DNA of 64,000 nt from Candidatus Woesearchaeota archaeon. GTDB taxonomy: Archaea > Nanobdellota > Nanobdellia > Woesearchaeales > GW2011-AR15. The notes beneath the pieces were generated by a model that searched no databases, was not told the origin of the DNA, and saw only the letters and a program-made list of their open reading frames with translations. Shown here in pieces: positions 7,646-64,000 of the stretch. The number at the start of each line of letters is the position of its first letter. The first letter of the stretch is position 1. The translations under genes and the position numbers were made by a program. The stretch is taken from NCBI GenBank assembly GCA_016935095.1, contig JAFGRO010000029.1:7313-71312 (forward strand), given 5' to 3'.

Positions 7646-7658
7646 TTTGTCTCATAAC

Positions 7659-13688: not shown

Positions 13689-13690
13689 TT

Positions 13691-16409: not shown

Positions 16410-16450
16410 ATTCTAACCATCCCTTTCCTGTCTTTTCCTGCAAATTCCAT

Positions 16451-16732
16451 TTATCTCATTCCCATCATTCTGCACAACGGACAATCATCATGTCTCCAGC
16501 TAAACCTTGCATTCTTCCATTCATCATCCGATAATGTGCATATCGTCCTGTCAGTCCTGAGCATGTTCAAAAAATCCCTGTGTGTCATCTCAGTTCCTTC
16601 AAGCTTTCTTGCCAGCTCGTCCAGTTTTGGCCAATGCTCATTGTGCAATTCTTCCCGTTCATAGCATTTCCTTGTACAGTAATTCCCGTGAAACCAATTT
16701 ACCAAATGCCTGATTTTAACTGGTCTTTTCAC
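16451..16732 (-). CDS. Small Cys-containing protein (CxxxC ... CxxC) in GC-rich island
   Basis: 93 aa, CTRKC and CPLC; start overlaps cas6 stop by 4 nt. Confidence 0.35.
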   Translation of the reverse strand: MKRPVKIRHLVNWFHGNYCTRKCYEREELHNEHWPKLDELARKLEGTEMTHRDFLNMLRTDRTICTLSDDEWKNARFSWRHDDCPLCRMMGMR

Positions 16733-17478: not shown

Positions 17479-17504
17479 GAAAAAATCCCCCTTTAATCAT
17501 AAAT

Positions 17505-17530
17505 AGATGTTTAAATATAAACTTTTCTTC
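17505..17530 (-). promoter_or_regulatory. Putative archaeal TATA/BRE promoter for cas6 operon, plus GGGGG RBS at -8
   Basis: Minus-strand GTTTATATTTAAAC about 43 nt upstream of cas6 ATG; aaagggggattttttcATG gives a Shine-Dalgarno-like GGGGG. Confidence 0.3.
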
Positions 17531-17783
17531 AAAATCAGGATAAAAATCCTCATTTTTTTTCATCCCTCTCACTCCACCACCCATCCTGGCTTATTATCAG
17601 GTTATCTAAAACAGGTATCTGCAACAATCTCCAGCTTCTTTAAGATGATCCCAGACCCTTAAGTCTTCATTGGAAGGATTAAGGTTTCCTGAAGGGTGGT
17701 TGTGCACAGTTATTATCTTGTTTGCACTCTGGAGCAATTCACAAACAAACTATTTATAGTCCCCTTCATTTCCCTTAATATGT

Positions 17784-18284
17784 ATGAAAATAAAACTCAC
17801 AATAGAACTTGTACCTTCTACAGTCTGGTTTTCTTCTCTTTATAATATTTTTAAGAACAGCAGCCAGCAGGCTTTATGGAGAGATATTAAAAATATGATA
17901 TTTAAAAAAGAAGGCAGAAAATGCTGGGTGTGCGGCAGAACAGATAGAAGGCTGGAGGCACATGAGTTCTGGGATTATGATGATAAAAACAAAATTCAAA
18001 AATTGGTAGCAATTCACCATTTATGTGATTTGTGCCACAAAGTAAAGCATATAGGATTATGGTTGCATACAGATAAAGGGGCAAGGCTTCTAGATCAACA
18101 AGGATTAGATAGTTTTGATGTTGTTAATCATTTTTGTGCGGTCAACAACTGCGATCAAGATGTCTTTGATAAATGCGAAGAAGAAGCCTTTAAAGTATTT
18201 GCTGAGAGAAGCAAATATCAGTGGAAGCAGGATTTTGATGCTTATGAGAAAATAATAAGACCATTAATTAAAAATGAGTATTAA
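17784..18284 (+). CDS. HNH endonuclease-domain protein
   Basis: CWVCGR...LEAHEFW...IHHLCDLCHKVKH: CxxC / HH / CxxCH HNH signature; divergent from cas6. Confidence 0.5.
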   Translation: MKIKLTIELVPSTVWFSSLYNIFKNSSQQALWRDIKNMIFKKEGRKCWVCGRTDRRLEAHEFWDYDDKNKIQKLVAIHHLCDLCHKVKHIGLWLHTDKGARLLDQQGLDSFDVVNHFCAVNNCDQDVFDKCEEEAFKVFAERSKYQWKQDFDAYEKIIRPLIKNEY

Positions 18285-19176: not shown

Positions 19177-21474
19177 TTATTCCTTCCTGTTTAACTTCCG
19201 CTTCTTTATCTCCTGTTCAAACCACTGCTCCCACTCAAAATAAATTTTCTTATGGTCTAAAATGCCTGTTTCTTCTTTTACTTTATCTGCCATTAAATGG
19301 AATACGTCATTGCACAAAATCACAAATCCTGCTTCCATCATTTCATCATCTTTCAGCTTTAAAGCTGTATCTGCCAGTTTCTGCCTGCACTGGGCTCTTG
19401 TCTCTATATTTTCCCAGACTGCATCCCAGTTTGCTGCAAAATCAGGTATATTCCCTGCAATGATCTTTAAAATTTCAGATTCGCCGTTAATTAATTCAGG
19501 AGTAGGAATAAGCTCATCTTTTTTTGAATCATATTTCATCAGATCAAGGAATGCCCCCTCTAAAAGAGGATCATTTTCCCATGTTTTTCTCACTTCTGTT
19601 ATCTGAGTGATCCTCCTGAACCTGTGCAGGCCGTCTGCAGATTTAATTGGCGTGGCAATTATACATATATCCGTTGCCTTGAAGCTTGTTTTTGGAACGC
19701 CTATATCATTTACAACGCGGTCATAAATCCCGTAAGGAGAATCTCCGTGAATCGTGCCGGCAACGACATTTGCAGCAGCACCAACGCGCATTGCCTCATA
19801 GAGTGAAATTGCTTCTTTGCTGCGGACTTCCCCTACAATCAAAGATGAATCCCCTAACCTTAAAGTAGCCCTGATGCCGTCAGAAGCGCTTACTTCTGCT
19901 GTGCCATGTGATAATGCTGATGCAACTTTCAGCTGCTGGATATTGAAACCAAGATTCCTTAATTGTCTCACAGGGAGCTCTAAAGTATCTTCAATTGTAA
20001 TTACCCTGTACCTGCGCATTATCTCAACAATTAAAGCAGAAAGAAATGAAGATTTCCCTGAACTGCGTGTACCGCAGATAAGCATTGTCCTCGTACCATC
20101 AATAAGAAAACTCAATAGCCCCGCTGCAAGAGAATTAATCATCTTGAATTTCATAAATAATGGAAGTGTCCATGGCTTGTCACGATGTCTTCTGAATGAA
20201 AAAGCCAACCCGGTCGGATTTAAAGGAGCTGTTATTGCCGAAACCCTGGTATTCGCTCCCGGCAAATCAAGCTCTGTATCCAATATAGGATTCGCTTCAT
20301 CCAATGGTCTTCCGGAAATCATTCTAAGCTTGGATGCCCATGATTCTGCTTCAGTTGTCGTAGGAATAATATTTGTAACACAGTCATCAAACTTCCCATG
20401 TACAATAAATATAGGAATATGGCCCATAGGACTATTTATTGAGATATCCTGAATCTCTTCATCCTGCAGTAAAACCTCTATTAAACCAAAGCCGACAGTA
20501 TACCTGACTAAAATTGCTGTCAATTCAATAATTTCCTTTTCCCTCAGCTTCATATTCCTGTATGAGCCAAGCTCTTCAATAAGGTCCCTGCCAACATTAA
20601 AAAAGACTTCCCTCATCCTCTGGGGGTCTACAAATTCAGATTTTTTCGGCTTATGCTCCGCCATTATCTTTTTTGCAACATCCAATAACTCATATTTTTC
20701 TTCGCTTAATTTAAATTCAGGAGGCATCATATGATAAAATATCTGGACATTTTCCTGAAGTTTAAATACAGTTATTTCAGTATCTTCTGCAATTGTATAA
20801 TTGGCAATTTCTTCACCCCCTTTTGGATATGCTGACATTAATTTAGTGTACATAAAATCAGGCTTAATCATCGGCTTAAAAATTCTCCTGTAAACAGACC
20901 TGTCTCCGATTTCATATCCTGCTAAATATGGCTTTGCAATTATTATAAATCGGGTTTGTTCCAATTGTACGATGATCTGGTTTAATAATCCTATGAACTT
21001 ATTGTAACAATAATTTGATAAATTATCAATTGATTTCTCAAGTAAAATCTGTTCCTGTCTTTTTAGCCGTTTTAATTCTACATATGCACTAAACGGGTCT
21101 TTAATCATCAGGTCAAATATTATATGTTGAAGTTCATTATACCAGGCATCTACAAATCTCCTGCATCTCCCGAAAGATAATGCCTGGTAGCTGAATGTTG
21201 TTTTGTCTTTAGAATAATAAAGAAAAAGTTTTGCTATTTCATTTAACATCATGGTCTGTTCATAATCATACTCATATTCCCGTTTTTGAAAAAAGATTAT
21301 TTTTGTTATGCCATGGGTCTGTGCCAGCTTTTCAACTGTTTTTGCCATGCACCTTGGATTGTCTTCAATTGAGGGCAATTGTAAACTTTTAGAGTAATCT
21401 CCCCTCAGGATATTATCCTCACCCTCCCTGTCTACAGAAAAAACAATCTTATCATTAATTTCAGTTTTAGGCAT
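19177..21474 (-). CDS. Type II/IV secretion-system ATPase (FlaI/PilB/VirB11 family) with long N-terminal extension
   Basis: Walker A ICGTRSSGKSSF, Walker B/Asp box DSSLIVGEVRSKEA, His box TIHGDS; 765 aa. Confidence 0.8.
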   Translation of the reverse strand: MPKTEINDKIVFSVDREGEDNILRGDYSKSLQLPSIEDNPRCMAKTVEKLAQTHGITKIIFFQKREYEYDYEQTMMLNEIAKLFLYYSKDKTTFSYQALSFGRCRRFVDAWYNELQHIIFDLMIKDPFSAYVELKRLKRQEQILLEKSIDNLSNYCYNKFIGLLNQIIVQLEQTRFIIIAKPYLAGYEIGDRSVYRRIFKPMIKPDFMYTKLMSAYPKGGEEIANYTIAEDTEITVFKLQENVQIFYHMMPPEFKLSEEKYELLDVAKKIMAEHKPKKSEFVDPQRMREVFFNVGRDLIEELGSYRNMKLREKEIIELTAILVRYTVGFGLIEVLLQDEEIQDISINSPMGHIPIFIVHGKFDDCVTNIIPTTTEAESWASKLRMISGRPLDEANPILDTELDLPGANTRVSAITAPLNPTGLAFSFRRHRDKPWTLPLFMKFKMINSLAAGLLSFLIDGTRTMLICGTRSSGKSSFLSALIVEIMRRYRVITIEDTLELPVRQLRNLGFNIQQLKVASALSHGTAEVSASDGIRATLRLGDSSLIVGEVRSKEAISLYEAMRVGAAANVVAGTIHGDSPYGIYDRVVNDIGVPKTSFKATDICIIATPIKSADGLHRFRRITQITEVRKTWENDPLLEGAFLDLMKYDSKKDELIPTPELINGESEILKIIAGNIPDFAANWDAVWENIETRAQCRQKLADTALKLKDDEMMEAGFVILCNDVFHLMADKVKEETGILDHKKIYFEWEQWFEQEIKKRKLNRKE

Positions 21475-28726: not shown

Positions 28727-31700
28727 TTATTCAGTAGAATAATCTTTAAACATCTCTATTCTTGGATCAGGAATACTCTCAAGAAGTTCAGGGTCTAAAA
28801 CAATATTCCTAAATTCTTCATAAGTAATAAAGTCATATACTTCCTCAAACTCTCCAACTATTCTTGTTTCATAATGTACATAATAATATCCCTTTTCATG
28901 GTATTGATGCCACATGGTCTGCAAACCATTTTTTGTAAAAACTATGTCATGTGCACCTTTTATTCTTCTTAATTCATCTGTTAACTGTTCTAGCAATACA
29001 TTTGATAGGTCTAGGTGCTCTCCACGATAATCTTCATTAATTTCAATATAAGACTTATAAATTCTTGTAGTTGAACCTGTATGTAGCCATTGATCACATG
29101 TACCCTCATCCCACATAGAATAAAAGCCTACATATTCATTACCATTATTATTAATATCATAAAGTAATATATGTTCCTGATATATATCCATAGTAGAATC
29201 ACGGATAATTAATACAACATACTCCCTCCTATTATACATTACAGATTTAGTCTCAAATTCAATATCATCACCCTTAAGATCTATTTTTACTTCTCCTCCT
29301 ACATAAGTTCTTTTAGTAACTATTCCTCCTTCAATATTATTAAATTCATTTAATCCATCAATACCAATGCTTTTAGCAGTATATTCTCCACCCCTGACAA
29401 TTCCTGCTTCAAGTTCAACTTCAGCTCCATAAAATGATAAATCTGATCCTTCTTGTGCTAATACAACATCCCTGATTCTATATTCATTTCTTTCTGAGAT
29501 AAAGTCAACTTCTGATCTTTCCCGCAATTTGGAAAAACTAGTAATATCACTTACTTCAAATACATTTACTATTGAACCATCCGGTGTTTCAAATACGCGT
29601 AAATTAGCATGTCTTAGCTGATATTGCATTGCTTCAACATTTGTATCTACATTTACCTCAATATCAAAACCAGAGATACCTCCTCCCATGCTATTTACAA
29701 TTGTAGCGAATGAACCAAGCAATGGATGAACACTAGATAGAATTTCTTCACCAACTTCTTCAAGAGCTTCTTGGGCAACTGTACTTACAACTTCAACAAC
29801 AAGTCTTCCCCCAGAAGTCTTTAAAAGAAATCTACCTACAGCATTGCCCATTAATCTTGGTCCAAGAACTCTACTTGGCAATGTAACAATATCATGTATT
29901 AATAATACTACTGCATTTCCTGATTGTGCTGCCTTACTAATAAGATAACTTCCAAGAGAAGGCAGTAGTTTTGTGTATATTGGATTGAATAAAGATGCAA
30001 TAATTTTAGGAATTTCATATCTTTGAAATTCATCAGATTGCCAGAAAAATTTTCCATTCATTGCTTCTAAAACTTGTTCTACTGTTTGGCCTTCTTTATA
30101 TCTTTTAAAAGTAGAAATATCCCCATTATATGTAAGTCCTGCTTTTCCATCTGCCATTAATCCACTTAATAAACTTGAAGATAAAGTATACTCGTCTGTT
30201 TCTCTTAATAATAATGCAGCTTTGAACATTTCCTGACTAGCCTGACTAGGGTCTTTAGGATCTTCAACATTAAGATATAAATTAAATAAAGGATTTTTTT
30301 TTAAATAAACTAAATAACTAAATCCTATAGAAGGATTTAAATTTTCATCAAATTCTGCTTCCATGTAATCAGTAAATTCACCTTTTAGTAGCCCACTCTC
30401 ATATCCATTTGAATTAAATACTTTCTCACCATAAAGTACAACAACACCTCCATCAGCATTTCCATGTTTTGATCCATAAACAACCAGTGGAGTCCTTCCA
30501 GGTGAATTAAATTCCTCTGTTTTCTCAACTGTATTTGGTGGCTCTCTATTATAAACGATGATTCCACCCCATTCACGTATGATAATATTTCTTATTGGCT
30601 CAAGACCATTTACATAATACAAATCAACAATACCTCCATTAAGTGTAATTTGACCTGTATAAAGTCCTGAAACTTCATCTTCTCTTAATTTTTCATCTCC
30701 AATTAATGAATATTTTACATATGTTTTATCATTATGTATTTCAACATAATCATTGCGCATTAATGTTATTGGTTGATTGTCTCTAATTTGAGTTTTTAAA
30801 AACTCTACTCTTCCAAGAAGTTTATTATCTGTTTCTTTCTCTAATTCCTGAACCACTCCAGTAAGAGTAAGTTCTGGATAACGATTAGTAATCTCTTTTA
30901 ATTTTAATGCCGCATTTGTTTTTGCTGTATAATAATATTCCAACCACTGTTGTGGAGTTGTACTAATATCAGCATACATAAAAATTGGATTTGCTGAATT
31001 AATCCCCAGCTGAAGAAAACTAACTATGTCCATTAAAGGACCTCCTTCAAACATAGGTTTAATATCTTTGCCAGAAGCAAGTGCCCAAAAACTATCTGGC
31101 GTAAGTCTAGCTTTAGTTTCATGATAACTAATACTTGCTCCAATAAGTGTCTTTTCAAGTGCATCATTAACAAGAAGATTTCCTTGTGAATAATCAAAAC
31201 CATATTCACTGATAAGCCAATGTTTTCTATGAGCATATTGGAGTTCTTCGACTGCTCTCCAATAAGCCATAATTGCTTCTTTGTATTCTGAAGTTTTAAT
31301 ATTATCATTAGGATCAAAAATATCTGAATCTCCTGATAAAAGTGAATAAGCAGCATGTGTGTATACTTCAGCAAGTGCTGTATTCTCCTCTAGCTCCCAT
31401 AAAAGAATCACTATTTCTTGTACATCCAAATCTGAAAGATCACCAACCACTTGCCATTTATTATCTATATAATCAATTCTTGGATCATTTTTCAGTTCTT
31501 GAAATTTATCCTTAGCAGCTTGTTCAGCCTCTTTTGATTTTCTATAGTTTTTTATAAAAGAACTTCCTTCAGTAAGTAATTCATTTTTGTTAATAAACAA
31601 AACATGTAAAGAGTCAAAATGACAAGTAATTTGAGCAAGCAATCCTGGGGATTCACCACCTCCTTCAATACTTTGTGATAAATACATAAGTGCTGAATAT

Positions 31701-32074
31701 GCATCATCAATGTCTTCTTCAGCTTTATGATTGTTACTTGGATCACCGTCAACTACATATTCTGCTGCACGATCCATATAAAAAAACACTTCCATTAATT
31801 TTCTTGTCTGAATTTCAGTCAAATCAAATGAAATACACTTTCCACACGCTCCTCGATAACGAATCAAATTTTCATAAGAATTAATTAGGTGTCTAACCTG
31901 GCAGTCTTCAACCAAACAAAGATCTTTATCACTAATATCCTTTAAAAGCTCACCATCACATTCCTCAGCAGACAGTGTTTCCTCAGGTTGAACTCCTGGA
32001 CAACATCCAGTCAACAAAACAATCAGTACAATAATACACATAATTATTAATATCTTAGAATTTTTTTTATTCAT
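28727..32074 (-). CDS. Large (1115 aa) secreted/lipoprotein-like surface protein
   Basis: N-terminal signal MNKKNSKILIIMCIIVLIVLLTGCC (lipobox-like); long uninterrupted ORF. Confidence 0.5.
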   Translation of the reverse strand: MNKKNSKILIIMCIIVLIVLLTGCCPGVQPEETLSAEECDGELLKDISDKDLCLVEDCQVRHLINSYENLIRYRGACGKCISFDLTEIQTRKLMEVFFYMDRAAEYVVDGDPSNNHKAEEDIDDAYSALMYLSQSIEGGGESPGLLAQITCHFDSLHVLFINKNELLTEGSSFIKNYRKSKEAEQAAKDKFQELKNDPRIDYIDNKWQVVGDLSDLDVQEIVILLWELEENTALAEVYTHAAYSLLSGDSDIFDPNDNIKTSEYKEAIMAYWRAVEELQYAHRKHWLISEYGFDYSQGNLLVNDALEKTLIGASISYHETKARLTPDSFWALASGKDIKPMFEGGPLMDIVSFLQLGINSANPIFMYADISTTPQQWLEYYYTAKTNAALKLKEITNRYPELTLTGVVQELEKETDNKLLGRVEFLKTQIRDNQPITLMRNDYVEIHNDKTYVKYSLIGDEKLREDEVSGLYTGQITLNGGIVDLYYVNGLEPIRNIIIREWGGIIVYNREPPNTVEKTEEFNSPGRTPLVVYGSKHGNADGGVVVLYGEKVFNSNGYESGLLKGEFTDYMEAEFDENLNPSIGFSYLVYLKKNPLFNLYLNVEDPKDPSQASQEMFKAALLLRETDEYTLSSSLLSGLMADGKAGLTYNGDISTFKRYKEGQTVEQVLEAMNGKFFWQSDEFQRYEIPKIIASLFNPIYTKLLPSLGSYLISKAAQSGNAVVLLIHDIVTLPSRVLGPRLMGNAVGRFLLKTSGGRLVVEVVSTVAQEALEEVGEEILSSVHPLLGSFATIVNSMGGGISGFDIEVNVDTNVEAMQYQLRHANLRVFETPDGSIVNVFEVSDITSFSKLRERSEVDFISERNEYRIRDVVLAQEGSDLSFYGAEVELEAGIVRGGEYTAKSIGIDGLNEFNNIEGGIVTKRTYVGGEVKIDLKGDDIEFETKSVMYNRREYVVLIIRDSTMDIYQEHILLYDINNNGNEYVGFYSMWDEGTCDQWLHTGSTTRIYKSYIEINEDYRGEHLDLSNVLLEQLTDELRRIKGAHDIVFTKNGLQTMWHQYHEKGYYYVHYETRIVGEFEEVYDFITYEEFRNIVLDPELLESIPDPRIEMFKDYSTE

Positions 32075-36542: not shown

Positions 36543-37421
36543 ATGTCAAAAAACAAAGCAGGTAATAATATCAAAGGATTCATCTATGTTTTTTTGTTTT
36601 CAATCTCATGGGCAATTGACGCAATAATAGCAAAACTTGCATATAAAAAAGGAGCAGACCCTTTTGTATTTTCATATCAGACTTTGCTTCTGGCAAGTTT
36701 TCTGATGATTGGATATACATTTATCTTAAAAAACAAATCCTCTCTAAAACTCACTAAAAAAGACATCCCTTTAATGATTTTTCTCGGGTTTCTTGCAAAC
36801 GGGGTTGGCACAGCTTTTGAGCAGGTTGGATTAAAACTTTCATTTGCCACAAATTACGGGTTTATTATAAAAACAGCTACGTTTTTTGTTGTTATTTTTG
36901 CATTTTTAATATTAAAAGAAAAGATTTCATTCAAAAAAATGATTTTATTATTTTGTCTTTTACTGGGCTCTTACTTTATATCAACAAAAGGGGAATCATT
37001 AATTCCTGCTTTAGGAGATATTTTCATTATATCAGCAGCTTTATGTTTTGCTTTAGTTGCAGTTTTATCCAAAAAAATTATTAATAGAAATTCAGCTGAG
37101 TTTCTTTCATTTTTCAGATTATTTTCCGGAGGATTTACTTTATTTACTATTTCTTTGATTTTAGGGAAGAATATTCTAAATACTTTGTACTTTTTCTATA
37201 TGCTGATTGATAGTGTTTTCAGATTTTTACTTATTTTATTCCTGTATAAGACTATTGAAATAAAATCAGCATCATACATGACAATGATGTCAATGATGTT
37301 TTCTGTGTTTGTTGCAGTATTTAGTTATTTTATCTTTGGGGAGACAATGAACCTGGTTCAGATACTTGGCGCTATAATGATCATTGGTTCTGTTGTTTTA
37401 ATTCAGAAATCAGAAATATAA
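36543..37421 (+). CDS. EamA/DMT-family transporter
   Basis: ~10 TM helices, duplicated 5-TM architecture, 292 aa. Confidence 0.6.
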   Translation: MSKNKAGNNIKGFIYVFLFSISWAIDAIIAKLAYKKGADPFVFSYQTLLLASFLMIGYTFILKNKSSLKLTKKDIPLMIFLGFLANGVGTAFEQVGLKLSFATNYGFIIKTATFFVVIFAFLILKEKISFKKMILLFCLLLGSYFISTKGESLIPALGDIFIISAALCFALVAVLSKKIINRNSAEFLSFFRLFSGGFTLFTISLILGKNILNTLYFFYMLIDSVFRFLLILFLYKTIEIKSASYMTMMSMMFSVFVAVFSYFIFGETMNLVQILGAIMIIGSVVLIQKSEI

Positions 37422-44414: not shown

Positions 44415-44534
44415 TGGGCCCGATGAGATTTGAATTCGTGAATCCAAAGGATTTCTCACGACCGCCCGATTATCAGTCTCGCCCTCAAAATTTAATTTTG
44501 AAACGGGCGCTCCACCAGACTAAGCTACGGGCCC
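44415..44534 (-). tRNA. tRNA-Ile(GAU) with two putative non-canonical introns (26 nt in the anticodon-stem 5' strand at ~30/31; 20 nt at T-stem/T-loop junction ~53/54)
   Basis: Minus strand GGGCCCG-TA-GCTT-AGTCTGGTG-GAGC-G-CCCG[TTTCAAAATTAAATTTTGAGGGCGAG]A-CTGATAA-TCGGG-CGGTC-GTGAG[AAATCCTTTGGATTCACGAA]TTCAAAT-CTCAT-CGGGCCC-A; spliced form gives a 74-nt cloverleaf. Confidence 0.55.
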
Positions 44535-44841: not shown

Positions 44842-45285
44842 TCAGGAAAGTTTAAAATAAATCAAATCTCCTTTGTTAATATGATTTTTCTCAGTAAAAT
44901 TTGCAACTACTTCAATTACATATAGTGAATCATTATCAGGATAATACACTTCACATGATTCTGATTTACAGGGAGCAAGGTCTTTTTCAATATGAATTAT
45001 TCTTTTATCTTCATTTAACCAGATTATATCAATAGGGAAATTCATGTTCTTCATCCAGAACCCATATTCATCAGGCTCTTCAAAAACAAAGAGCATTCCC
45101 TTGTTTTCTTCTAAAGTTTTCCTGTACATCAAGCCCTGTTCCCTTTCTTCAGGGGAATCCTTTACCTCGGCATCAATGCAGATGTTATTTTTAAAACAGA
45201 TTTTTTTAATATTAGTGCATGATACTAAAATCAAAAGCATGAGAATTAATAATTGAAATTTCATACACAGATTTATGCTTCGCAA
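44842..45285 (-). CDS. DUF192 (COG1430) secreted protein
   Basis: GLMYRKTLEENKGMLFVF...FWMKNMNFPIDIIWL...IEVVANF resembles DUF192; N-terminal signal peptide. Confidence 0.55.
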   Translation of the reverse strand: MRSINLCMKFQLLILMLLILVSCTNIKKICFKNNICIDAEVKDSPEEREQGLMYRKTLEENKGMLFVFEEPDEYGFWMKNMNFPIDIIWLNEDKRIIHIEKDLAPCKSESCEVYYPDNDSLYVIEVVANFTEKNHINKGDLIYFKLS

Positions 45286-46024: not shown

Positions 46025-46128
46025 CGCGCCTGATGAGATTCGAACTCACGACCTATTGCTCTCTTCTTTTGAATAGGAGGTTCGACAAGTTTGTTTCAAT
46101 CGCTCTATCCAAACTGAGCTACAGGCGC
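46025..46128 (-). tRNA. tRNA gene with ~29-36-nt insertion(s) in the anticodon region; identity unresolved
   Basis: Minus strand GCGCCTG-TA-GCTC-AGTTTGGATA-GAGC-G-ATTGA...(36 nt)...GCAAT-AGGTC-GTGAG-TTCGAAT-CTCAT-CAGGCGC-G; acceptor, D- and T-arms canonical, no 7-nt loop with U33 at standard position. Confidence 0.45.
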
Positions 46129-56299: not shown

Positions 56300-56660
56300 T
56301 AATAAAAACAAGATTATTAAATTTTGTGGAAAGTGAGAGGCATGCCAAGAAATCGATCCAAACACTAAATTCTGGTTAATCTTGAATTCTCCTCGATCCT
56401 GCTACCCTCTTAGCACCAGTTTTGAAGATTAACGTTGCTTCATTCCTGATCTCTCACGTGCGCCGGCACAGGATACAATCGAATCTCCGGTTCTGACGCA
56501 TGGCGTGGTTCTCAAAAAAACCAGTCCAAAAGGACAAAATCTCATTGTTGAACCCAAGGCCAAAACTTAGCTTTAAGACCTCTTTCCAGGCTTCGACCCC
56601 ATCATACGTCCATTTATGGTTACAGGGCAGGACGGGCACCCCAGTCTAGCCTCTCAAAAG
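56300..56660. ncRNA. GC-rich ORF-poor structured segment, candidate ncRNA (RNase P RNA or SRP RNA-sized); identity and strand unresolved
   Basis: ~360 nt with GC content clearly above the AT-rich background, only one short spurious ORF, multiple hairpins (GUCCAAAAGGAC; GUGAGAGGC...GCCUCUC end complementarity). Confidence 0.3.
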
Positions 56661-56887
56661 TGCGTAAAGAACAGCTATTTAAAAAATTTTTTGAGAAAAT
56701 ACAATATAAATTTATCTGAAACTAAGAACAAATCAGTCTTTTTTCCTTTTATTTTTGTTTCATAATTAATGGAATTGAATTTTTTTATTAATATTATTTT
56801 ACTTTTAATTTATCATAAATGATTTTTTTTAATTTTAGTTATTGAGGGAGAGCGCTTCCTGCCCTTATTAAAACAAAGAAATAAAAG

Positions 56888-57098
56888 AAGGGCAGTAGCC
56901 GGAACTTTCATAATGATTTCGCCTTTGCCGTATGAGAGGGATTTCGAACAAAGTGAGAACCTCCCTCACTAATTTCGGTGTAAATGGACGAAACCATTTT
57001 TTGAATCCGGTCTAGAGGATAACTGCTTGGCAATCCACATTGAGGCAATATGTGTCCTCTGTGCTGCCAGGTTACACCACTACTGCCATATTTGCTGT
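56888..57098. ncRNA. Second GC-rich structured segment, candidate small ncRNA (termini base-pair; UGUAAC motif reminiscent of SRP Alu domain on minus strand)
   Basis: 5' GGGCAGUAG... 3' ...CUACUGCC 8-bp terminal helix; internal hairpins GAGGGA/UCCCUC, CACAU/AUGUG; only one spurious ORF. Confidence 0.3.
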
Positions 57099-57157
57099 GA
57101 AAAATATTAAATTTTAAAAACTTATCCAAATTCCATCATTACTAAAAATAATAACTA

Positions 57158-58237
57158 ATGATAAGAATGGCATATCCGGAAATACTCAACAGGTTATATT
57201 TTGGTAACACTATATTGCAATATTTGATCTTTTTCAGCAGCATAGCCCTGACTATAATCATGGGAAAGATTGTTTATTATATCTCAAAAGGTATAATAAG
57301 AAAAATTACTTCTAAAACAAAAACAAAATTTGATGATATTCTAATAGACATCATCGAAGAGCCGCTCATCTTTTTGATTATTACAATCGGATTTTTTTTA
57401 GGGTATACCCAATTGAATTTAGCAGATAATATTGCAAATATTTTTACTGGATTAACCAGGATGTTCACAACCCTGGCATTTGCCTGGTTTTTCCTAAGAT
57501 TCATTGATTCTTTAATAGTCCATTACTTAATTCCAGCTACTAAAAAAACTGAATCTGACCTGGATGATCATTTGATCCCGATTATCAGAAAGCTGAGCAA
57601 AATAATTATTATTTCAATCACATTCATAATGATTCTAAGTAATTTCGGTTATGATGTTACGTCTATTGTTGCCGGGCTCGGCATAGGCGGTTTGGCAGTT
57701 GCTTTTGCAGCTAAAGATATGCTGGCGAATTTATTTGGAGGATTTACAATAGTAATTGACAAGCCGTTTAAGATGGGACAATGGATTGAAGTAGGCGGCT
57801 ATACCGGAGAAGTTGTTGAAATCGGCTTAAGAAGCACAAGATTAAAGACCAGCAACGGCGAATATATAACTATTCCGAACAGCTTTGTAGCTGAAAAAGG
57901 GACTGTCAATTATAAAAAATACAGGCAAAGGCTGGTTACTTTTACATTAGGCTTAGCATGTGATACTTCCAATGCAAAAATGAAAAAGTCAAAAGAAATT
58001 GTAAAAAAAGTAATATCTAAACAGGCTCTGCTTAAAGAAGATTCAGTTGAGGTTAATTTTGTTAATTTCGGAGATTTTACATATGACCTGGAAGTGAGGT
58101 ATATAATAAACACTAATTCTGCTGGTGAAGTAAGAAAAGTCAAAGATGCTGTCAACACAGAAATCAAGGAATTACTGGAAAAAAACAAAATCGAGCTGTC
58201 TTACCCCACACAGACACTTTATCTGAAGAAGCTGTAA
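57158..58237 (+). CDS. MscS-family mechanosensitive channel
   Basis: GLGIGGLAVAFAAKDMLANLFGGFTIVIDKPFKMGQWIEVGGYTGEVVEIGLRSTRLKTSNGEYITIPN: MscS pore-helix/beta-domain signature. Confidence 0.8.
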   Translation: MIRMAYPEILNRLYFGNTILQYLIFFSSIALTIIMGKIVYYISKGIIRKITSKTKTKFDDILIDIIEEPLIFLIITIGFFLGYTQLNLADNIANIFTGLTRMFTTLAFAWFFLRFIDSLIVHYLIPATKKTESDLDDHLIPIIRKLSKIIIISITFIMILSNFGYDVTSIVAGLGIGGLAVAFAAKDMLANLFGGFTIVIDKPFKMGQWIEVGGYTGEVVEIGLRSTRLKTSNGEYITIPNSFVAEKGTVNYKKYRQRLVTFTLGLACDTSNAKMKKSKEIVKKVISKQALLKEDSVEVNFVNFGDFTYDLEVRYIINTNSAGEVRKVKDAVNTEIKELLEKNKIELSYPTQTLYLKKL

Positions 58238-58276
58238 AGAAAAATTTATATACAACTATCCAGTGTATATCTTGAT

Positions 58277-58921
58277 ATGAAAAAAAGAATTCTGATAGGG
58301 ATTTTTATCTTATTAATCCCTGTTTTGATTAGTTGTTATGTATATTTCGGGATAATTTCACCCCAATTTATCAAAAAACCTTACATTGAAAAACCGGATA
58401 TAATTGGTCTTGATGAAAACTCAGATAATCTTGTAATCGAGGATTCCATGGTTAATTATATAGCAAACGAGATTGGCTCCTATAATCTCCATGAGGATCC
58501 TACTTCAGGAGAAATTCCTGAAATGGAGTTTATTGTAAATGATTTTGAGGAAGTATTCACTGTGAGGATTATTGATAATATACCCAGAACTGAAAAGGGA
58601 AGTGCGGCTAACCCAGACCTAAGGATTATAGCATCCCAGCCCGTTATTTTAGATATTCTGGACTCAGAAGACATACAAGGGAGGATTGTAAAACATATAG
58701 AGGAAGGAGATGTTGAAATCGAAGTTCTTGCTAATGAAGCAACACTTGGAATGAAAGGGTATAAAGCTGTTTATGACAGCATTAACAAAAATACAGATTT
58801 AATTACAGGGAAAGTAACAATGGAACTAAATCCTATGGGCTTTGTCAGCTTAATAAAATTATGTTTTCTAATCTGTCTGTTTTTGATTATAGAACTGGCT
58901 TTTCTTTATGAAACCCATTAA
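58277..58921 (+). CDS. Hypothetical protein with N- and C-terminal TM segments
   Basis: ORF; hydrophobic ends. Confidence 0.3.
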   Translation: MKKRILIGIFILLIPVLISCYVYFGIISPQFIKKPYIEKPDIIGLDENSDNLVIEDSMVNYIANEIGSYNLHEDPTSGEIPEMEFIVNDFEEVFTVRIIDNIPRTEKGSAANPDLRIIASQPVILDILDSEDIQGRIVKHIEEGDVEIEVLANEATLGMKGYKAVYDSINKNTDLITGKVTMELNPMGFVSLIKLCFLICLFLIIELAFLYETH

Positions 58922-58923
58922 AA

Positions 58924-59466
58924 TCATTTAATCAGGTTGTATTTTGACAGGACTTCTTTGTAAGTTTCAAAATCTTCTGATTTTTTAAATTCCTTAATCT
59001 TTTCTTTAGTCAGCTGATTTATCCATTTATGCTGAATTTTAATTACTTTTTTAATATCTTCATCCAAGACGGGCTGTTCTTTATATTCCTCTGCTGGAAA
59101 TTCCTCATATTCATCGTGTGTAAATCTGAAGAAATCCAGTATTTTAGAGATAATATCTTTTTCTTTTTTTGGTTTTATTTCTTCTTCCTCTTTAGATTCC
59201 TCTGTTTGTTCCTGAAATGAATCTAATTCCTCTCCATTTTCAGTTTCTCTTATTATCTCTGCCTGTTTTTTTGGCATAAAAATGTTAAAGATTCGTCTAT
59301 AAAAAGGTTCCCTCTCCTTACAGAACTCCTGGCTCTCTTTTTCAAAATCAGAATCTGAAGCTATAATCTCAGACTCAGCTTTCTTCTTGAGTGCGCCTTT
59401 TCTTACTTTTGTACTTAAATAACGATCCAGTTCCTTGTTAAATTCTTGCTGGGTTATTTTTATCAC
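58924..59466 (-). CDS. Highly charged (E/K-rich) hypothetical protein
   Basis: ORF only. Confidence 0.3.
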   Translation of the reverse strand: MIKITQQEFNKELDRYLSTKVRKGALKKKAESEIIASDSDFEKESQEFCKEREPFYRRIFNIFMPKKQAEIIRETENGEELDSFQEQTEESKEEEEIKPKKEKDIISKILDFFRFTHDEYEEFPAEEYKEQPVLDEDIKKVIKIQHKWINQLTKEKIKEFKKSEDFETYKEVLSKYNLIK

Positions 59467-59647
59467 CCTTAATTATTAGTTAGTATAAATTAAATATTTC
59501 AATGCTATTTATATGTTTCTGAATTGCCGGGCAATTCAGAAGCCCAAAAATGGTTAAAAATGCATTTTTTATGTTTTGGAAAAACAAAGTTTTTTTTAAT
59601 TTGTTATCCAGTTAAATTTATATATGTAATACCGATATTTAATACTT

Positions 59648-60061
59648 ATGTTAAAAAAGAGGTCCCAGGTTAGTGTTGAGTTCTTAACCATATTTGGATT
59701 TGTATTTCTGATGCTAATTCCTTTGGTAATAGTCTTTCACCTTCAGTCAAATGAAACAAAAGATAGCCTGGCTTCCAACCAAATCAGAAACATGGGTATG
59801 AAAATTATTGATAAAACAGAATATGTTTATTATCTGGGAGAGCCGTCAAAAACAACATTGAAATTTATGTTTCCGGAGAGAATAGAAAACATAAGCATAT
59901 GTAACAGGGAGCTGATTTTTAATTATAAAACATATAATGAAAACATACAGCCTGTAATTTTTATATCGCTTGTAAACATAACAGGCAATTTGTCTTCTGG
60001 CTCAGGAATACACAAGATAATTATTGAAGCTAGGGGTGATTATGTATCAATCACAGAATAA
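59648..60061 (+). CDS. Archaeal type IV pilin-like protein (class III signal peptide, QxSxExxxL motif)
   Basis: MLKKRSQVSVEFLTIFGFVFLMLIPLVIV: basic N-terminus, Q-V-S-V-E-F-L, long hydrophobic helix. Confidence 0.5.
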   Translation: MLKKRSQVSVEFLTIFGFVFLMLIPLVIVFHLQSNETKDSLASNQIRNMGMKIIDKTEYVYYLGEPSKTTLKFMFPERIENISICNRELIFNYKTYNENIQPVIFISLVNITGNLSSGSGIHKIIIEARGDYVSITE

Positions 60062-60075
60062 AATCCCAGGTAAGT

Positions 60076-60438
60076 ATGGAGTTTATTTTCATGACCGGCA
60101 TGGCAATTGTCGTTACCTTTGTTCTTTTGCTTGTGGTAGGGGAAATGATCAACAGAAATGCTGATGAAAAAAAAACAATAATACTCAATGACTACGGGTA
60201 TTATATCCAGAACGAGTTTATTCTGGCTGCAGAAACAGAACCCGGCTATAAGAGGATAATAGATATTCCAAATGAACTTGAAAATATTGAATACTCAATC
60301 TGGAACACAGACAAGATATTATTTGTCAACAGTTCAAAAATTGAATTCTGGTGGCATATACCTGAAACACAGGGGAATGTCCAGAAAGGCATCAACATAA
60401 TCCAAAATATAAACGGAAGTGTTTGTATAAATTGTTAA
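60076..60438 (+). CDS. Small pilin-like/membrane-anchored protein
   Basis: MEFIFMTGMAIVVTFVLLLVVGEM; in pilin cluster. Confidence 0.35.
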   Translation: MEFIFMTGMAIVVTFVLLLVVGEMINRNADEKKTIILNDYGYYIQNEFILAAETEPGYKRIIDIPNELENIEYSIWNTDKILFVNSSKIEFWWHIPETQGNVQKGINIIQNINGSVCINC

Positions 60439-60439
60439 A

Positions 60440-60982
60440 ATGTTTATTGGGAAAAAATCGCAAATCTGGTATACTGATTTCATATTAGGGCTGACTATTT
60501 TTCTGATAGCCCTGTTAATAGCTGTAAAATATATTTCAGATAATTATATTCTCCCAAGAGAAGATACTAGTGAGATGGTTATTGTTGCACAGTCTGTTTC
60601 AGAGTCTCTGATGACAAAAGGCGTGCCTGAATCATGGAATGAGGAAAATGTCATCAGGATTGGTATTACTGACGGAGATTATGTCATAAATAATACAAAA
60701 TTAACAGCTTTTTCAAATCTCACGCAGTCAGATTATGAATACACCAGAAGCCTGCTTGGCTCTCACAGATTCGAGTACTTGATTTTTTTCAAAGACAACT
60801 ACAATAATACAATGAATTTAACTTCAGAGTATATTGGCAAACCAAACATTACTGAATATAATATAGGATCATTGGACACAGAGGAGATTATCTCTATAAA
60901 AAGGTTCATTGTCTTAAAACAGGGAGAAGAAGAAAACAGAACTGCCCAGATCCTGGAAATGAATCTGTATTTATGGCAATAA
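60440..60982 (+). CDS. Pilin-like protein with class III-type signal peptide
   Basis: MFIGKKSQIWYTDFILGLTIFLIALLIAV; starts 2 nt after the previous gene. Confidence 0.45.
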   Translation: MFIGKKSQIWYTDFILGLTIFLIALLIAVKYISDNYILPREDTSEMVIVAQSVSESLMTKGVPESWNEENVIRIGITDGDYVINNTKLTAFSNLTQSDYEYTRSLLGSHRFEYLIFFKDNYNNTMNLTSEYIGKPNITEYNIGSLDTEEIISIKRFIVLKQGEEENRTAQILEMNLYLWQ

Positions 60983-60984
60983 AC

Positions 60985-63900
60985 ATGATTACCGGAAAAA
61001 ATAAGAAAGGGATTTTTTTTACAATAGACGGCATTTTTGCAACATTGTTAATACTCTTCGGGCTAATTCTGGTATTTTCAAATTTCATTGAACAGGACGA
61101 ATCAACCGCCCAGATAAATTATCTTTCAAAGGATCTTGTAAACAGCTTGGCCAATATCAAAATTACTGAAGTGGACGACTCTTTTGTTAAAAAATTAATC
61201 TCCGACGGAAACATAACTAACCTAAATAATTCTGTTATTGTACAGATAGGGGAGTTCTATGTTTTAAATAAGACAGAGCTTGCACTGAATTTATCTAAAA
61301 TCCTCACTGAAAAGCTTATACCGGATAAATTCGGTTTTCAGATTCTAGTCAATGATGAAACAATTTTAGTTAATGACTCAAAATCAGGAAGAATGGATGA
61401 TTTAATCTCTTACAGGAGAATGGTCTCCGGCTTTGAAAAATTTAAGCCGTTAAGAGGAGCAACTTCAAGAGTCTTTTTAGAAGGCATAAATGAAAAGACG
61501 TATTATTCATACTTATATTTCGGCGGTTTTGTAGGCCAGGGCAATATTACTGGATATATTGATGACATTCCATCAAATGTAGATATAATTAACATGTACT
61601 TTGAATCTGATTCCGGTGGAAATTTTGAATTGTATATTAACGAGATAAAATGTAATGGCACATATTATCCGGGGACAGGGGAGATGACAGCAGATTCATG
61701 GGATATTACTCTGTGTAATTCTTCGGTTGTCCCCGGTGAGCGAAATAATTTTACGGTCATGTTTAAAGGGGATATCGGCAATTCATACATAGGAGGTGGA
61801 TTTATCAGAATAACTTACATGACCAGTCAAATGCAGCAGGAATCTTTTTTTGATTCATACAGATACCAGTTCCCTGAAATACGGGGCATTATCAATATAT
61901 ATTCCTCCTTTTATGTACCGGGAATCCTTGATTCAATGAATGTTTATCTGCATTTTTTTGCCAATACATCAGGTAATTCAACCAACACATTATATTTAAC
62001 TATAGGAAATGCAACTGTTGTTTCAATAGAAAATCTAACCGGAGAAAATAATGTCACTCTGACAGATATTAATTTAACACCCTATATTAGTTACTCTGAA
62101 TTAACTTCAAAAACAGTTCCCATAAGAATCGGATTTGAAAATGTAAGTTTCGGCTATATCTACGAGGGTAATGCGGATGTAGCCCTGATTACAGATGTTT
62201 CAGGAAGCATGGACTGGAGGATGAGCAGCAATGATGGAGGAACAGCAAGAAATTGTAATGACCCTGATTTAAATCTCTCTACAACAAGCAGGTTAAGTGT
62301 TGCTAAATGCCTGGATAAGGAATTTGCAGAGGATATAATAAATATAACTGGAAATGAAGTTGGCTTAATATCTTATGATACAAGCACTAATACTGGTGAA
62401 ACAGTATATCCTACAACAGACCTAAATTCATTATACCAGACAATTGGTAATGCAAGCCCTGAAACAGGTTACTCTGCAGACGGGTGGACTTGCATATGTT
62501 GCGGCATAAATTCTGCAAGAGACATACTAGTAAATGACATATCAGCAACAACATTAATATCTTCAGGTTCAAGCTGGCTTTACAATGATGATTATCTAGA
62601 TGGAGATATCCCCCAGGATCCCTCCGGCAATAACTGGTATGACATAACATATTCTAATGAATCAGACTGGTCAACAGGCAATGCAATTTTAGGCGCTACA
62701 AATAGTTATGTTTATTCACCATATGTAGATACAGAAATTACTTCTGATCTTTTAGGTGACACTAGTTATGTAAATTTATGGGAGAATAATGGAGATGTTT
62801 CCGGAGCTCCGAATGATTTTTCATCAGGTGTTTTAAATTCAACAGGAAATACATATGGCATATCAGGAGACAATGACGGCTGGGACTGGGATAATCAAGA
62901 TGGCTCAGGACCTTTTGGATATGATGATGATATTGAATATATGAATATTACAGTTTTAGGATCCGAAGAGATGATGACATTAAGATGTAATTATTACTGG
63001 GGCGGAAATATTTGCACAGACAATGACTGTTCAGGAGCATATGGAATTCTTGTTAATATTACCCAGGATATGTATGATCTGATTCTAGCAGGAGGCATTG
63101 CAACAGTTTCATTTTATTACGAATGGGCTGACGGACCTGGCAATAAATTTGAAATTGACGATCAGGTATGGACAAAAGTAAGATGGACATCCAGTATATC
63201 CGGAACTCATTTTTTAGGCAACCAGCTGGATGGCTCTCATGGGGAGGGAGATGCTGATTTTGAAATTGCCACAGCCGACAATCCAGATAATCAATATTTT
63301 GGATATTATGCCCAGGAAATCACTAACTGGATTGAATCGCCTGGATTATATTACCTTGAATTAGGGGGAAAGGTTCTTGCTGATAACAATGATGAAGTCG
63401 GAAGATGGTATTTTGATAATATACAGATTGAGATATCAAATGCAATGGATTATTATTATTTCAGGAAACATTTTACAATTGCTGACCTTAACAGTGTTAA
63501 AAAAGGAGTCTTAAATGTATTATCAGATGATAAGGCAATTATTTATTTGAATGGAGAAATAATAGATATTGATTATGAAGAGCATGAGGCAGAATATTGG
63601 AACAGTAGGGGCAAAAACATAGAAGGAAGTTATTTTAGATTAGGAGATAATGTCATTGCTGCTGAATTATTTAATTCTGAAGACGCAGCAAAATTTGATA
63701 TGGAACTAATCGGATTAAATGAATCCAGAGACAAAGCAATGATGGTAATGACTGACGGCCAGGCTAATCTTCAGTGTGCTGAACAGGGAACAGGAAGCTC
63801 TTCACAGGATGCAATCCAGGCTGCATGTGATGCCCGCGAAGATTACGGAATAATAGTCTATGCCGTTGGTTATAGTGATGAAGCGCAGGAATCTACACTT

Positions 63901-64000
63901 CAGGGGATTGCTGATTGCGGGGACGGCATCTACAGAAAAAGTGATAATTTATCTGAATTGCAGGATTTTTACGAAGATGTGGCTTCCCAGATTATATCTG
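60985..64000 (+). CDS. Giant pilin-like protein with von Willebrand factor A (vWA) domain, 3' partial (runs off window)
   Basis: Open frame from ATG 60985 to window end (>1000 codons; absent from ORF track because it has no stop); N-terminal KKGIFFTIDGIFATLLILFGLILVF; MIDAS DVALITDVSGSMDW (codon ~404); MVMTDGQAN (codon ~923); IVYAVGYSDEAQESTLQGIADCGDGIY. Confidence 0.6.
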   Translation, partial: MITGKNKKGIFFTIDGIFATLLILFGLILVFSNFIEQDESTAQINYLSKDLVNSLANIKITEVDDSFVKKLISDGNITNLNNSVIVQIGEFYVLNKTELALNLSKILTEKLIPDKFGFQILVNDETILVNDSKSGRMDDLISYRRMVSGFEKFKPLRGATSRVFLEGINEKTYYSYLYFGGFVGQGNITGYIDDIPSNVDIINMYFESDSGGNFELYINEIKCNGTYYPGTGEMTADSWDITLCNSSVVPGERNNFTVMFKGDIGNSYIGGGFIRITYMTSQMQQESFFDSYRYQFPEIRGIINIYSSFYVPGILDSMNVYLHFFANTSGNSTNTLYLTIGNATVVSIENLTGENNVTLTDINLTPYISYSELTSKTVPIRIGFENVSFGYIYEGNADVALITDVSGSMDWRMSSNDGGTARNCNDPDLNLSTTSRLSVAKCLDKEFAEDIINITGNEVGLISYDTSTNTGETVYPTTDLNSLYQTIGNASPETGYSADGWTCICCGINSARDILVNDISATTLISSGSSWLYNDDYLDGDIPQDPSGNNWYDITYSNESDWSTGNAILGATNSYVYSPYVDTEITSDLLGDTSYVNLWENNGDVSGAPNDFSSGVLNSTGNTYGISGDNDGWDWDNQDGSGPFGYDDDIEYMNITVLGSEEMMTLRCNYYWGGNICTDNDCSGAYGILVNITQDMYDLILAGGIATVSFYYEWADGPGNKFEIDDQVWTKVRWTSSISGTHFLGNQLDGSHGEGDADFEIATADNPDNQYFGYYAQEITNWIESPGLYYLELGGKVLADNNDEVGRWYFDNIQIEISNAMDYYYFRKHFTIADLNSVKKGVLNVLSDDKAIIYLNGEIIDIDYEEHEAEYWNSRGKNIEGSYFRLGDNVIAAELFNSEDAAKFDMELIGLNESRDKAMMVMTDGQANLQCAEQGTGSSSQDAIQAACDAREDYGIIVYAVGYSDEAQESTLQGIADCGDGIYRKSDNLSELQDFYEDVASQIIS

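Follow-up and report, generated by a model that had tools for sequence, protein, structure and literature searches.

A candidate adhesive end for an archaeal type IV pilus: a pilin-like gene cassette with a split vWA domain in Woesearchaeota

Introduction

DPANN archaea, Woesearchaeota among them, have very small genomes and are believed to live in attachment to other cells, but little is known of how they locate a partner and stay bound to it. In Saccharibacteria, their bacterial counterparts, type IV pili are known to drive binding to the host. Here we ask whether a cluster of pilin-like genes in a Candidatus Woesearchaeota archaeon encodes the adhesive end of such a pilus. The cluster begins at position 59648 of a 64,000-nucleotide stretch of DNA (GenBank assembly GCA_016935095.1, contig JAFGRO010000029.1, positions 7,313 to 71,312 of the forward strand), referred to below as the window. 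The window has a G+C content of 33% and carries an archaeal signal recognition particle RNA at 56334–56656.

A preliminary description of the window, made from its sequence alone, proposed that three small proteins bearing class III signal peptides precede a giant pilin-like protein with a split von Willebrand factor A (vWA) fold. Our analysis shows that these genes belong to a five-gene operon encoding, in order, the small proteins p137, p120 and p180 (named by length in amino acids), a 1265-aa vWA protein that we call the adhesin for its proposed role, and p318. We find it probable that, in Woesearchaeota, this cassette encodes the initiation complex of an archaeal type IV pilus, made up of minor pilins and a tip adhesin. 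As a candidate for the adhesive end of such a pilus, it is concrete and widely conserved.

A five-gene operon extends past the end of the window

The adhesin gene starts at ATG 60985 on the forward strand, 2 nt after the stop codon of the 180-aa gene, and stays open for 1005 codons up to the window end at 64000, as the preliminary description had reported (more than 1000 codons at this spacing). We identified a Logan contig (L001, 9926 nt) that matches window positions 56802–64000 over 7199 nt with no mismatch and then runs on for 2727 nt. All sequence data past 64000 are taken from this contig. It closes the large frame, with no frameshift, at 1265 aa (window-equivalent position 64782). The full gene is thus intact, and this intact frame and the identical contig rule out a pseudogene or an assembly artefact.

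The large gene had been taken to end the cluster. On the contig it is followed at 0-nt spacing by the gene for p318 (318 aa; N-terminus MSKKA/VFFTFMAIF, where a slash here and below separates positions −1 and +1), and a convergent gene downstream of p318 closes the operon. The cluster is a five-gene operon, p137-p120-p180-vWA adhesin-p318. NCBI names the large protein 'VWA domain-containing protein [Ca. Woesearchaeota archaeon]' and gives the gene after it the locus tag JXB41_04425. A word-indexed search returned 252 homologues of the large protein; among the matches listed, more than 60 align over the full length of the 1265-aa protein.

The motif TTTATATA lies at window positions 59617–59624, centred ~28 nt 5' of the p137 ATG. 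This motif may represent an archaeal TATA box for a leaderless transcript of the operon, a chance occurrence being possible at 33% G+C.

The five proteins have conserved pilin-like N-termini

The first protein, p137 (137 aa, 59648–60061, forward strand), begins with MLKKRS/QVSVEF and contains the QVSVEFLTI motif noted earlier. The third, p180 (180 aa, 60440–60982, forward strand), carries GKKS/QIWYTDF near its N-terminus. Both genes are supported by their open reading frames (ORFs) and by orthologue conservation, and the class III signals proposed for them hold. The signal proposed for the second protein, p120, holds only in part: translated from its first ATG (60076), the 120-aa protein begins MEFIF and has no signal, but INHRIKS/QVSMEF lies in frame upstream. 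The sequence GGGGTGA at 60033–60039 precedes an ATC codon at 60046. In six of seven close relatives, an ATC or ATT codon stands 7–8 codons before the Q of p120, with a GGGTGA-like motif ~6 nt ahead. Because of this in-frame signal and its arrangement in relatives, we propose that p120 translation probably starts at ATC 60046, which would give MNHRIKS/QVSMEF and a gene (60046–60438, forward strand) that overlaps the 3' end of p137. The automatic Logan gene call for p120 (115 aa) misses the class III signal.

The adhesin has the signal KKGIFFTIDGIF described for the large frame, with a class III-like N-terminus (KNKKG/IFFTIDG). With p120 read from ATC 60046, all five proteins have a basic leader ending in G, A or S followed by a hydrophobic helix of ~20 residues.

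Since curated pilin models all scored below threshold, we used orthologue conservation to assess pilin-likeness. The orthologues derive from 80 loci found when one genome per species was scanned (161 species with a hit) and from 4 loci added by exact-protein look-up. They were assigned by position and profile, yielding 57–82 orthologues per gene. Positions −2 and −1 were fixed by the search rule and carry no evidential weight; positions +1 to +9 are informative. The p137 N-terminus follows the pattern [KR]G/QVSxE[YF] (Q+1 88–94%, E+5 86–94%) and that of p120 follows KA/QxxxEF (Q+1 96–100%, E+5 94–98%). p180 orthologues have KA/QxWxxDF (Q+1 93–96%, W+3 69%, acidic +6 97%), and adhesin orthologues have KKG/xxFTxDA (F+3 76%, T/S+4 82%, D+6 94–98%, acidic +6 96%, A+7 85%). 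In p318 the pattern is KKG/xFFT, with an acidic residue in at most 5%. The acidic residue of pilins is thus kept at +5 in p137 and p120, moved to +6 in p180 and the adhesin, and absent from p318. This conservation of N-terminal motifs in 57–82 orthologues per gene, together with the T2SSE/T2SSF linkage in relatives described below, bears out the preliminary reading of the cluster as pilin-like.

Domain models gave little further information on the small proteins. PF04021 (Class_IIIsignal) was found in orthologues only below threshold (E 0.066–0.32, the former in a p137 orthologue). TadF matched one orthologue at a non-significant E of 0.49, TadE and Tad likewise had no significant match, and DUF7287 matched p180 weakly (E 0.0015, below the Pfam cut-off). 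The p318 family profile had no match among PDB sequences. Cross-matches between the iterated p137 and p120 profiles are not a product of profile drift: the globular parts of the two proteins remain truly homologous once the N-terminal helix is taken away (hhalign probability 87%, E 3.7e-6). By the same comparison, neither p180 (found in 73 loci) nor the candidate major pilin introduced below is related to p137 and p120 at the globular level.

N-glycosylation sequons are enriched 2–3 fold over shuffled controls in all five proteins (4 observed versus 1.4 expected in p137, 32 versus 16.2 in the large protein, 12 versus 4.0 in p318). This enrichment is missing from the cytoplasmic proteins of the window and fits surface exposure of the cassette proteins, as judged from sequence. 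Elsewhere in the window, the ORF at 28727–32074 (reverse strand) encodes a 1115-aa protein with a lipobox-like N-terminus (…LLTGC) and no Pfam match. It has 0 sequons versus 6.9 expected, unlike the sequon-rich cassette proteins.

Gene order is conserved across archaeal lineages

We examined gene context in 82 non-redundant loci, most of which keep the five-gene order, using as upstream and downstream denominators the loci with enough flank. p137, p120 and p180 lie directly upstream of the adhesin gene on the same strand in 55 of 71 loci, and p318 lies directly downstream in 67 of 71. Downstream flank of 7 kb or more is available for 41 loci; a T2SSE ATPase gene lies there, on the same strand, in 30, and 26 of these 30 also have two T2SSF platform genes. 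A very conserved KKG/QAAMEFLMTYGWAIL pilin gene lies 3' of the platform genes in 14 loci; the encoded protein is a likely major pilin. Among the carriers are Woesearchaeota/Nanoarchaeota, Aenigmatarchaeota, Altiarchaeota and a metagenome-assembled genome (MAG) from Norongarragalinales. Searching with a profile of the adhesin N-terminal domain gave 1378 cluster representatives (50% identity), 1015 of them with E no higher than 1e-10; the matching region is always N-terminal, in proteins of 850–2031 aa.

The adhesin and p318 genes recur as tandem pairs with differing insert sizes in several loci (L026, L042, L075, L082 and, in part, L020), from Altiarchaeota, Aenigmatarchaeota and Woesearchaeota MAGs. 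One example encodes 1261-aa and 623-aa proteins followed by 906-aa and 660-aa proteins. Altiarchaeota p318 homologues are much larger than p318 itself (480–900 aa). The recurrence of these pairs suggests that the adhesin and p318 work together as one unit and that there are alternative heads.

A DUF192 gene and a gene for a 385-aa helix-turn-helix protein often lie between the cassette and the ATPase gene. DUF192 homologues are found directly 3' of p318 in 29 loci and as fusions within 320–379-aa proteins (L006, L008, L013). In the window, a DUF192 gene is located at 44842–45285 (reverse strand), 15 kb from the cassette. The 385-aa protein (15670–16827 in locus L002, with equivalents in ~40 loci) has an N-terminal winged-helix motif and groups with T2SSE ATPases in an all-against-all BLAST; it has no homologue in the window.

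The adhesin contains a single vWA domain that is split by an insert

We modelled the adhesin (60985–64000 in the window and on to window-equivalent 64782) as two AlphaFold fragments, aa 1–400 and aa 380–1265, from alignments of 94 and 100 homologues. The aa 1–400 model has a mean predicted local distance difference test score (pLDDT) of 88. It begins with a continuous 52-residue helix (aa 6–57), the length of a pilin alpha1, within the conserved class III-like N-terminal segment (aa 1–57, 60985–61155). A small helical domain (aa 66–109) and a jelly-roll beta-sandwich (aa 171–385, 61495–62139, pLDDT mostly above 90) follow. The beta-sandwich resembles GH2 sugar-binding and BcsB carbohydrate-binding domains in Foldseek (probability up to 1.0, with low template-modelling (TM) scores) and contains the family signature YFGGFVGQGNIT. 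No Pfam family, the TadE and Tad N-terminal models included, matched aa 1–400 at E up to 1.

The aa 380–1265 model (pLDDT 90.1) contains the vWA domain. Its secondary structure runs beta1-alpha1-beta2-beta3-alpha2-alpha3-[insert]-beta4-alpha4-beta5-alpha5-beta6-alpha6, which is the canonical vWA order and agrees with the vWA fold first proposed from motifs. The N-terminal half, beta1 to alpha3, spans aa 396–518 (62170–62538), and the C-terminal half, beta4 to alpha6, spans aa 913–1008 (63721–64000, ending at window-equivalent 64008). A linker leads to a C-terminal beta-sandwich (aa ~1045–1225) with a weak resemblance to CBM_35. In Foldseek searches against the PDB, the vWA part matched the pilus adhesins PilB of Streptococcus sanguinis (7ba2/7b7p; the best structural match) and Mfa5, as well as LapA, with probability 1.0. 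TM-scores were low because the query has several domains. PDB sequence searches with the vWA and C-terminal region and with the spliced vWA domain gave only marginal matches to anthrax-receptor and BatA-like proteins.

Several lines of evidence agree that this is one split vWA domain. The two halves match complementary parts of the Pfam models: aa 400–515 cover positions 2–89 of 107 in VWA_2, and aa 915–997 cover positions 103–173 of 174 in VWA (PF00092, clan CL0128; E 2.9e-5, 24.8 bits against a cut-off of 23.8). When aa 385–518 were joined in silico to aa 913–1020, the product gave a single VWA match (40.2 bits, E 5.6e-10, positions 33–173 of 174) and a full-length VWA_2 match (28.3 bits against a cut-off of 27, positions 2–107 of 107). 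Both motifs named in the preliminary description, DVSGSM (D404) and MVMTDGQAN (D924), are present, and the large protein has one DxSxS and one TDG motif. The metal ion-dependent adhesion site (MIDAS) motif DxSxS...T...D is complete, with D404, S406 and S408 encoded at 62194–62208, T502 at 62488–62490 and D924 at 63754–63756, all on the forward strand. These five residues are invariant in 94 aligned homologues. Homologues of ~900 aa, lacking the insert, show the undivided form.

The domain is thus single and split, not duplicated. The preliminary description had offered either a large insertion or a duplicated or partial vWA domain as the reason for the 520-residue gap between DxSxS and TDG. 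The insertion stands, although the insert itself accounts for ~394 of these residues. A duplication or two partial domains are ruled out by the complementary profile halves, the single motifs and the splice result.

The insert varies in size and content at one site

The insert is an all-beta module of ~394 aa (aa 519–912, 62539–63720, forward strand) between alpha3 and beta4, supported by homologue alignment, AlphaFold and Foldseek. Homologues of ~900 aa align end to end with the adhesin except across aa 519–912, and their DxSxS-to-TDG spacing is canonical. Larger homologues have 225–330 residues added within the insert, after aa ~591 and ~630–641, and these added segments match the Pfam families MAM, InhA-like MAM, Laminin_G_3 and DUF2341. 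Outside the vWA part, Foldseek matches included reelin repeats, GH2 and GH35 jelly rolls, the meprin MAM domain and BcsB. A BetaGal_ABD2 jelly-roll match of one homologue maps to aa 820–899 of the adhesin.

The insert appears to be nested, with an outer galactose-binding-type jelly roll (aa 519–594 plus 820–912) surrounding an inner beta domain (aa 595–819). This reading draws on the Foldseek matches and on the BetaGal_ABD2 match of the homologue, because Pfam searches of the query's isolated insert, spliced outer jelly roll and inner domain found no match.

We measured the DxSxS-to-TDG spacing in 207 family members, a sample biased towards the adhesin's relatives: it is 100–149 aa in 71, 450–549 aa in 74 and between 150 and ~1290 aa in the rest. 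Identity to the query is 40–52% in the insert versus 57% in the vWA core. By analogy with canonical vWA topology, the alpha3/beta4 junction would lie at the pole opposite the MIDAS. This junction is probably a hotspot that holds none, one or several beta-sandwich modules depending on lineage, and by which ligand binding is retuned. In this nested, domain-within-domain design, a single site of the vWA fold accommodates anything from no insert to one of more than 1000 residues.

Candidate pilus machinery lies elsewhere in the window

The preliminary description pointed to two distant ORFs as possible machinery, and both are of the right kind. The first (19177–21474, reverse strand) encodes a 765-aa candidate assembly ATPase (Pfam T2SSE, E 1.2e-15). 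It is 63% identical over its full length to 767/768-aa ATPases whose genes divergently adjoin the cassette in two other loci (L036, L056), and we infer that it may serve this cassette in trans. The second, which had been given as 6–1682, runs off the window start (3–1682, forward strand) and encodes the C-terminal 558 aa of a candidate FlaJ/TadC-like platform protein with 7 predicted transmembrane segments. It is 29–30% identical (E 1e-67 to 1e-86) to residues ~165–735 of 740–751-aa T2SSF-like proteins encoded near the cassette in L016, L036 and L056. The ORF has no Pfam match of its own and matches a locus-derived T2SSF profile only weakly (E 2e-4). Orthologues of the two window genes thus adjoin the same cassette in two to three other genomes. 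The window and these three loci share a 765-aa-type ATPase with a single ~740-aa platform protein, unlike the at least 26 loci with two platform genes.

In L016, the closest relative for which context is available, the gene for the ~740-aa platform protein comes first in an operon of its own (10563–18172, reverse strand). This operon encodes a 908-aa secreted protein rich in thrombospondin-type-3-like calcium-binding repeats and four more proteins. Class III-like KK[AS]/Q N-termini are found on three of these four; in the remaining one (343 aa) the N-terminus is hydrophobic but has no such motif. A second pilin-like set of this type was not seen beside the window's platform gene. Because the L016 operon holds these further KK[AS]/Q proteins, any pairing of machine and pilin set is tentative.

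Comparison with known pilus systems

Among modular pilins of S. sanguinis, PilB carries a vWA module and PilC a lectin module (PMC8179133). Like PilB, the adhesin has a prepilin-type N-terminus and, after it, a vWA domain whose MIDAS is complete; both proteins are encoded among type IV minor pilins. The adhesin differs in being archaeal, three times larger and devoid of a detectable bacterial N-methylation motif. It also lacks the canonical pilin globular fold after alpha1 and has additional N- and C-terminal beta-sandwich domains. Its lectin-like modules sit within the vWA domain, whereas PilB and PilC place the two functions on separate pilins. The survey of PilB-type modular pilins took in bacteria only (PMC8179133), and the adhesin carries the modular-pilin idea from bacteria to archaea. 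The tip adhesin RrgA of pneumococcal sortase pili also has insertions, or 'arms', in a pilus-tip vWA domain (PMC8179133). The arms of RrgA are short and flank the MIDAS, whereas the adhesin has a ~394-aa multi-domain module (up to more than 1100 aa in relatives) at alpha3/beta4, and the pilus types are unrelated.

The cassette is also comparable to tight-adherence (Tad) loci. As in TadE, TadF and TadG, small pseudopilins accompany a large protein with a pseudopilin-like hydrophobic N-terminus and a vWA domain. As in TadA, TadB and TadC, a single ATPase gene goes with two platform genes in most related loci. TadG, for its part, has no settled role. TadG systems do not share the cassette's domain insert, its jelly rolls or its fifth, acid-less subunit.

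FimU-PilVWX with PilY1 (Pseudomonas, Myxococcus) and GspH/I/J/K are thought to prime assembly and to sit at the tip. The cassette is similar in that one operon encodes four to five low-abundance pilin-like proteins and a large vWA-bearing adhesin. GspK of the type II secretion system (T2SS) is a large subunit that lacks the conserved acidic residue, and p318 is likewise acid-less and large. We found no sequence homology between the cassette and FimU-PilVWX, PilY1 or GspHIJK, and archaea have no outer membrane or secretin. The preliminary description had likened the large protein to PilY1. The likeness stands as a functional analogy, but not as family membership: PilY1 is no pilin, and its defining feature is a C-terminal beta-propeller, whereas the adhesin has a pilin-type N-terminus. 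Membership is ruled out by the absence of a propeller match (Pfam PF05567 / IPR008707) and by a C-terminus modelled as a beta-sandwich. PilB and TadG are closer analogues.

Tad pili have been linked evolutionarily to archaeal Epd-type pili (bioRxiv 10.64898/2026.04.22.720090). These archaeal clade 1/system 1 pili, which are reported in DPANN among others, combine an ATPase with two platform genes, five or more minor pilins and large proteins predicted to be tip adhesins (PMC4858521; bioRxiv 10.64898/2026.04.22.720090). What the cassette and its relatives have in common with them are QxSxE-type pilin N-termini, a set of five or more minor pilin-like genes and large predicted adhesins that carry DUF2341 or galactose-binding domains; relatives also have the ATPase and two platform genes. 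In Methanococcus maripaludis, the epd minor-pilin operon contains no ATPase, platform or major pilin genes (PMC3875500), and the window has the same separation of minor-pilin operon and machinery. Unlike the adhesin, vWA proteins appear in surveys of these systems only as regulators linked to ArnB/MoxR, not as pilin-like adhesins. The window's 765-aa ATPase and single ~740-aa platform better fit the description of 'system 2'. Databases already list the protein family as 'VWA domain-containing protein', and loci of this type have been surveyed; in the open-access literature consulted we found no account of a pilin-like vWA adhesin whose vWA fold holds an inserted domain.

Proposed function and alternative explanations

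A mechanism for the cassette can be proposed by analogy with bacterial modular pilins, TadE/F/G, and minor pilins acting with PilY1 or as GspHIJK. All five proteins would enter the membrane by their prepilin-type N-termini (basic leader, G/A/S and hydrophobic helix), and a prepilin peptidase encoded elsewhere would cleave the leaders. The N-terminal helices would then hold the five proteins together in an initiation complex seated on the platform protein. As the ATPase drives the addition of major pilin from below, this complex would be pushed outward and come to lie at the filament tip, with p318, which lacks the acidic +5/+6 residue, as the candidate capping subunit by analogy with GspK. The 1265-aa subunit would display a vWA domain whose complete MIDAS may mediate metal-dependent binding of acidic ligand groups. 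Further binding surfaces may be provided by the N-terminal jelly roll, the C-terminal beta-sandwich and the lectin-like insert, which would leave the vWA domain at the pole opposite the MIDAS. Gain or loss of modules at the insertion hotspot (none, one or several by lineage) would retune pilus adhesion. Our data show the motifs, the gene structure, the split of the vWA domain, the variability of the insert and the synteny with pilus machinery. Incorporation into a filament, location at the tip, leader cleavage and the type of ligand are all parts of this model that we infer, and attachment to partner cells is plausible.

Several observations weigh against this assignment. The adhesin and p318 lack Q+1 and E+5, which makes their cleavage uncertain, and Pfam and NCBIfam pilin models remain below threshold on all small proteins of the window. 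After alpha1, AlphaFold predicts a small helical domain and a jelly roll in the adhesin instead of the canonical pilin alpha-beta roll. The ATPase and platform genes are 38–59 kb from the cassette and do not adjoin each other. A search of the window for a QAAMEF-type major pilin gave only p137 and p120. Neither an A24 prepilin peptidase of the PibD type nor EppA, both named in the preliminary description as expected partners, was found in the window, where no multi-transmembrane ORF has a GxGD motif and candidates were searched with Pfam; nor is a prepilin peptidase among the gene families conserved across 85 loci. One candidate, the ORF at 36543–37421 with 7 transmembrane segments, is an EamA transporter.

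The cassette might instead build a short pseudopilus or stalk, comparable to the T2SS pseudopilus or the Sulfolobus bindosome, that lifts a vWA/lectin protein through the S-layer with no long pilus. The window has no major pilin and its cassette stands apart from the ATPase and platform genes, as a stalk would allow. Four small proteins plus one acid-less subunit of ~320 aa also recall GspH/I/J/K in number and size. Moreover, archaeal proteins with class III signals include surface-displayed binding proteins (bioRxiv 10.64898/2026.04.22.720090; PMC4858521). We nevertheless regard a stalk as rather unlikely, given that 14 related loci have, behind the platform genes, a strongly conserved pilin-like gene whose product looks like a filament-forming major pilin. 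A membrane-proximal base or anchor, in which TadG-like cassette proteins would bind the archaeon's own envelope through the vWA domain, seems improbable to us. The model of Makarova et al. does place archaeal minor pilins near the base and notes the TadG anchoring hypothesis (PMC4858521), and an adhesin and p318 that lack the Q+1/E+5 signature might stay uncleaved. However, the variable lectin-like inserts and alternative tandem adhesin-p318 pairs fit variable external ligands better than a conserved internal anchor, and in the bacterial systems tested, minor-pilin initiation complexes reach the tip (PMC7541494).

The large protein could also be a stand-alone adhesin, anchored in the membrane like BatA or associated with the S-layer, whose adjacency to pilin genes is incidental. 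The absence of any pilin Pfam match and a weak match of the vWA domain to a BatA-like 'aerotolerance-related membrane protein' (4jdu, E 0.26) are compatible with this idea. It is nonetheless very improbable: KKG/xxFTxDA is conserved far beyond what a signal anchor needs (D+6 94–98%), gene order with the four pilin-like genes holds in 55–67 of 71 loci from several phyla with T2SSE/T2SSF linkage, and no MoxR ATPase is nearby. We give practically no credence to the frame being a pseudogene, an artefact of assembly or a pair of partial vWA domains, in view of the identical independent contig, the intact 1265-aa frame, the full-length homologues and the single spliced vWA match. A tip-located initiation complex therefore remains the explanation that we find probable.

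A further, tentative possibility is that exchange of lectin-type modules at alpha3/beta4 (none, jelly roll, MAM or LamG/DUF2341, up to more than 1100 aa), together with tandem adhesin-p318 pairs, sets which partner cell or surface the DPANN pilus recognises; we think this conceivable but doubtful. If true, module exchange at alpha3/beta4 would be a host-range determinant of episymbiotic archaea. It would also represent an archaeal, independently arisen equivalent of bacterial modular pilins and of phage-like diversification of receptor binding.

Other features of the window

The window includes a type I CRISPR-Cas locus at 5600–17478, with genes for Cas3 (9891–12134, reverse strand) and Cas6 (16729–17478, reverse strand) and probable cas1 and cas2 genes (6653–7645 and 6390–6662, reverse strand). 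A short CRISPR repeat array lies at ~5630–6230, in which TRF detected a 65-nt period with 2.5 copies at 6060–6223; the repeat is also seen as a repeated peptide in the ORF at 5631–5861. ARAGORN predicted no tRNA in the window. Rfam models identified two tRNA genes on the reverse strand, at 44415–44534 (120 nt) and 46025–46128 (104 nt), both probably intron-bearing.

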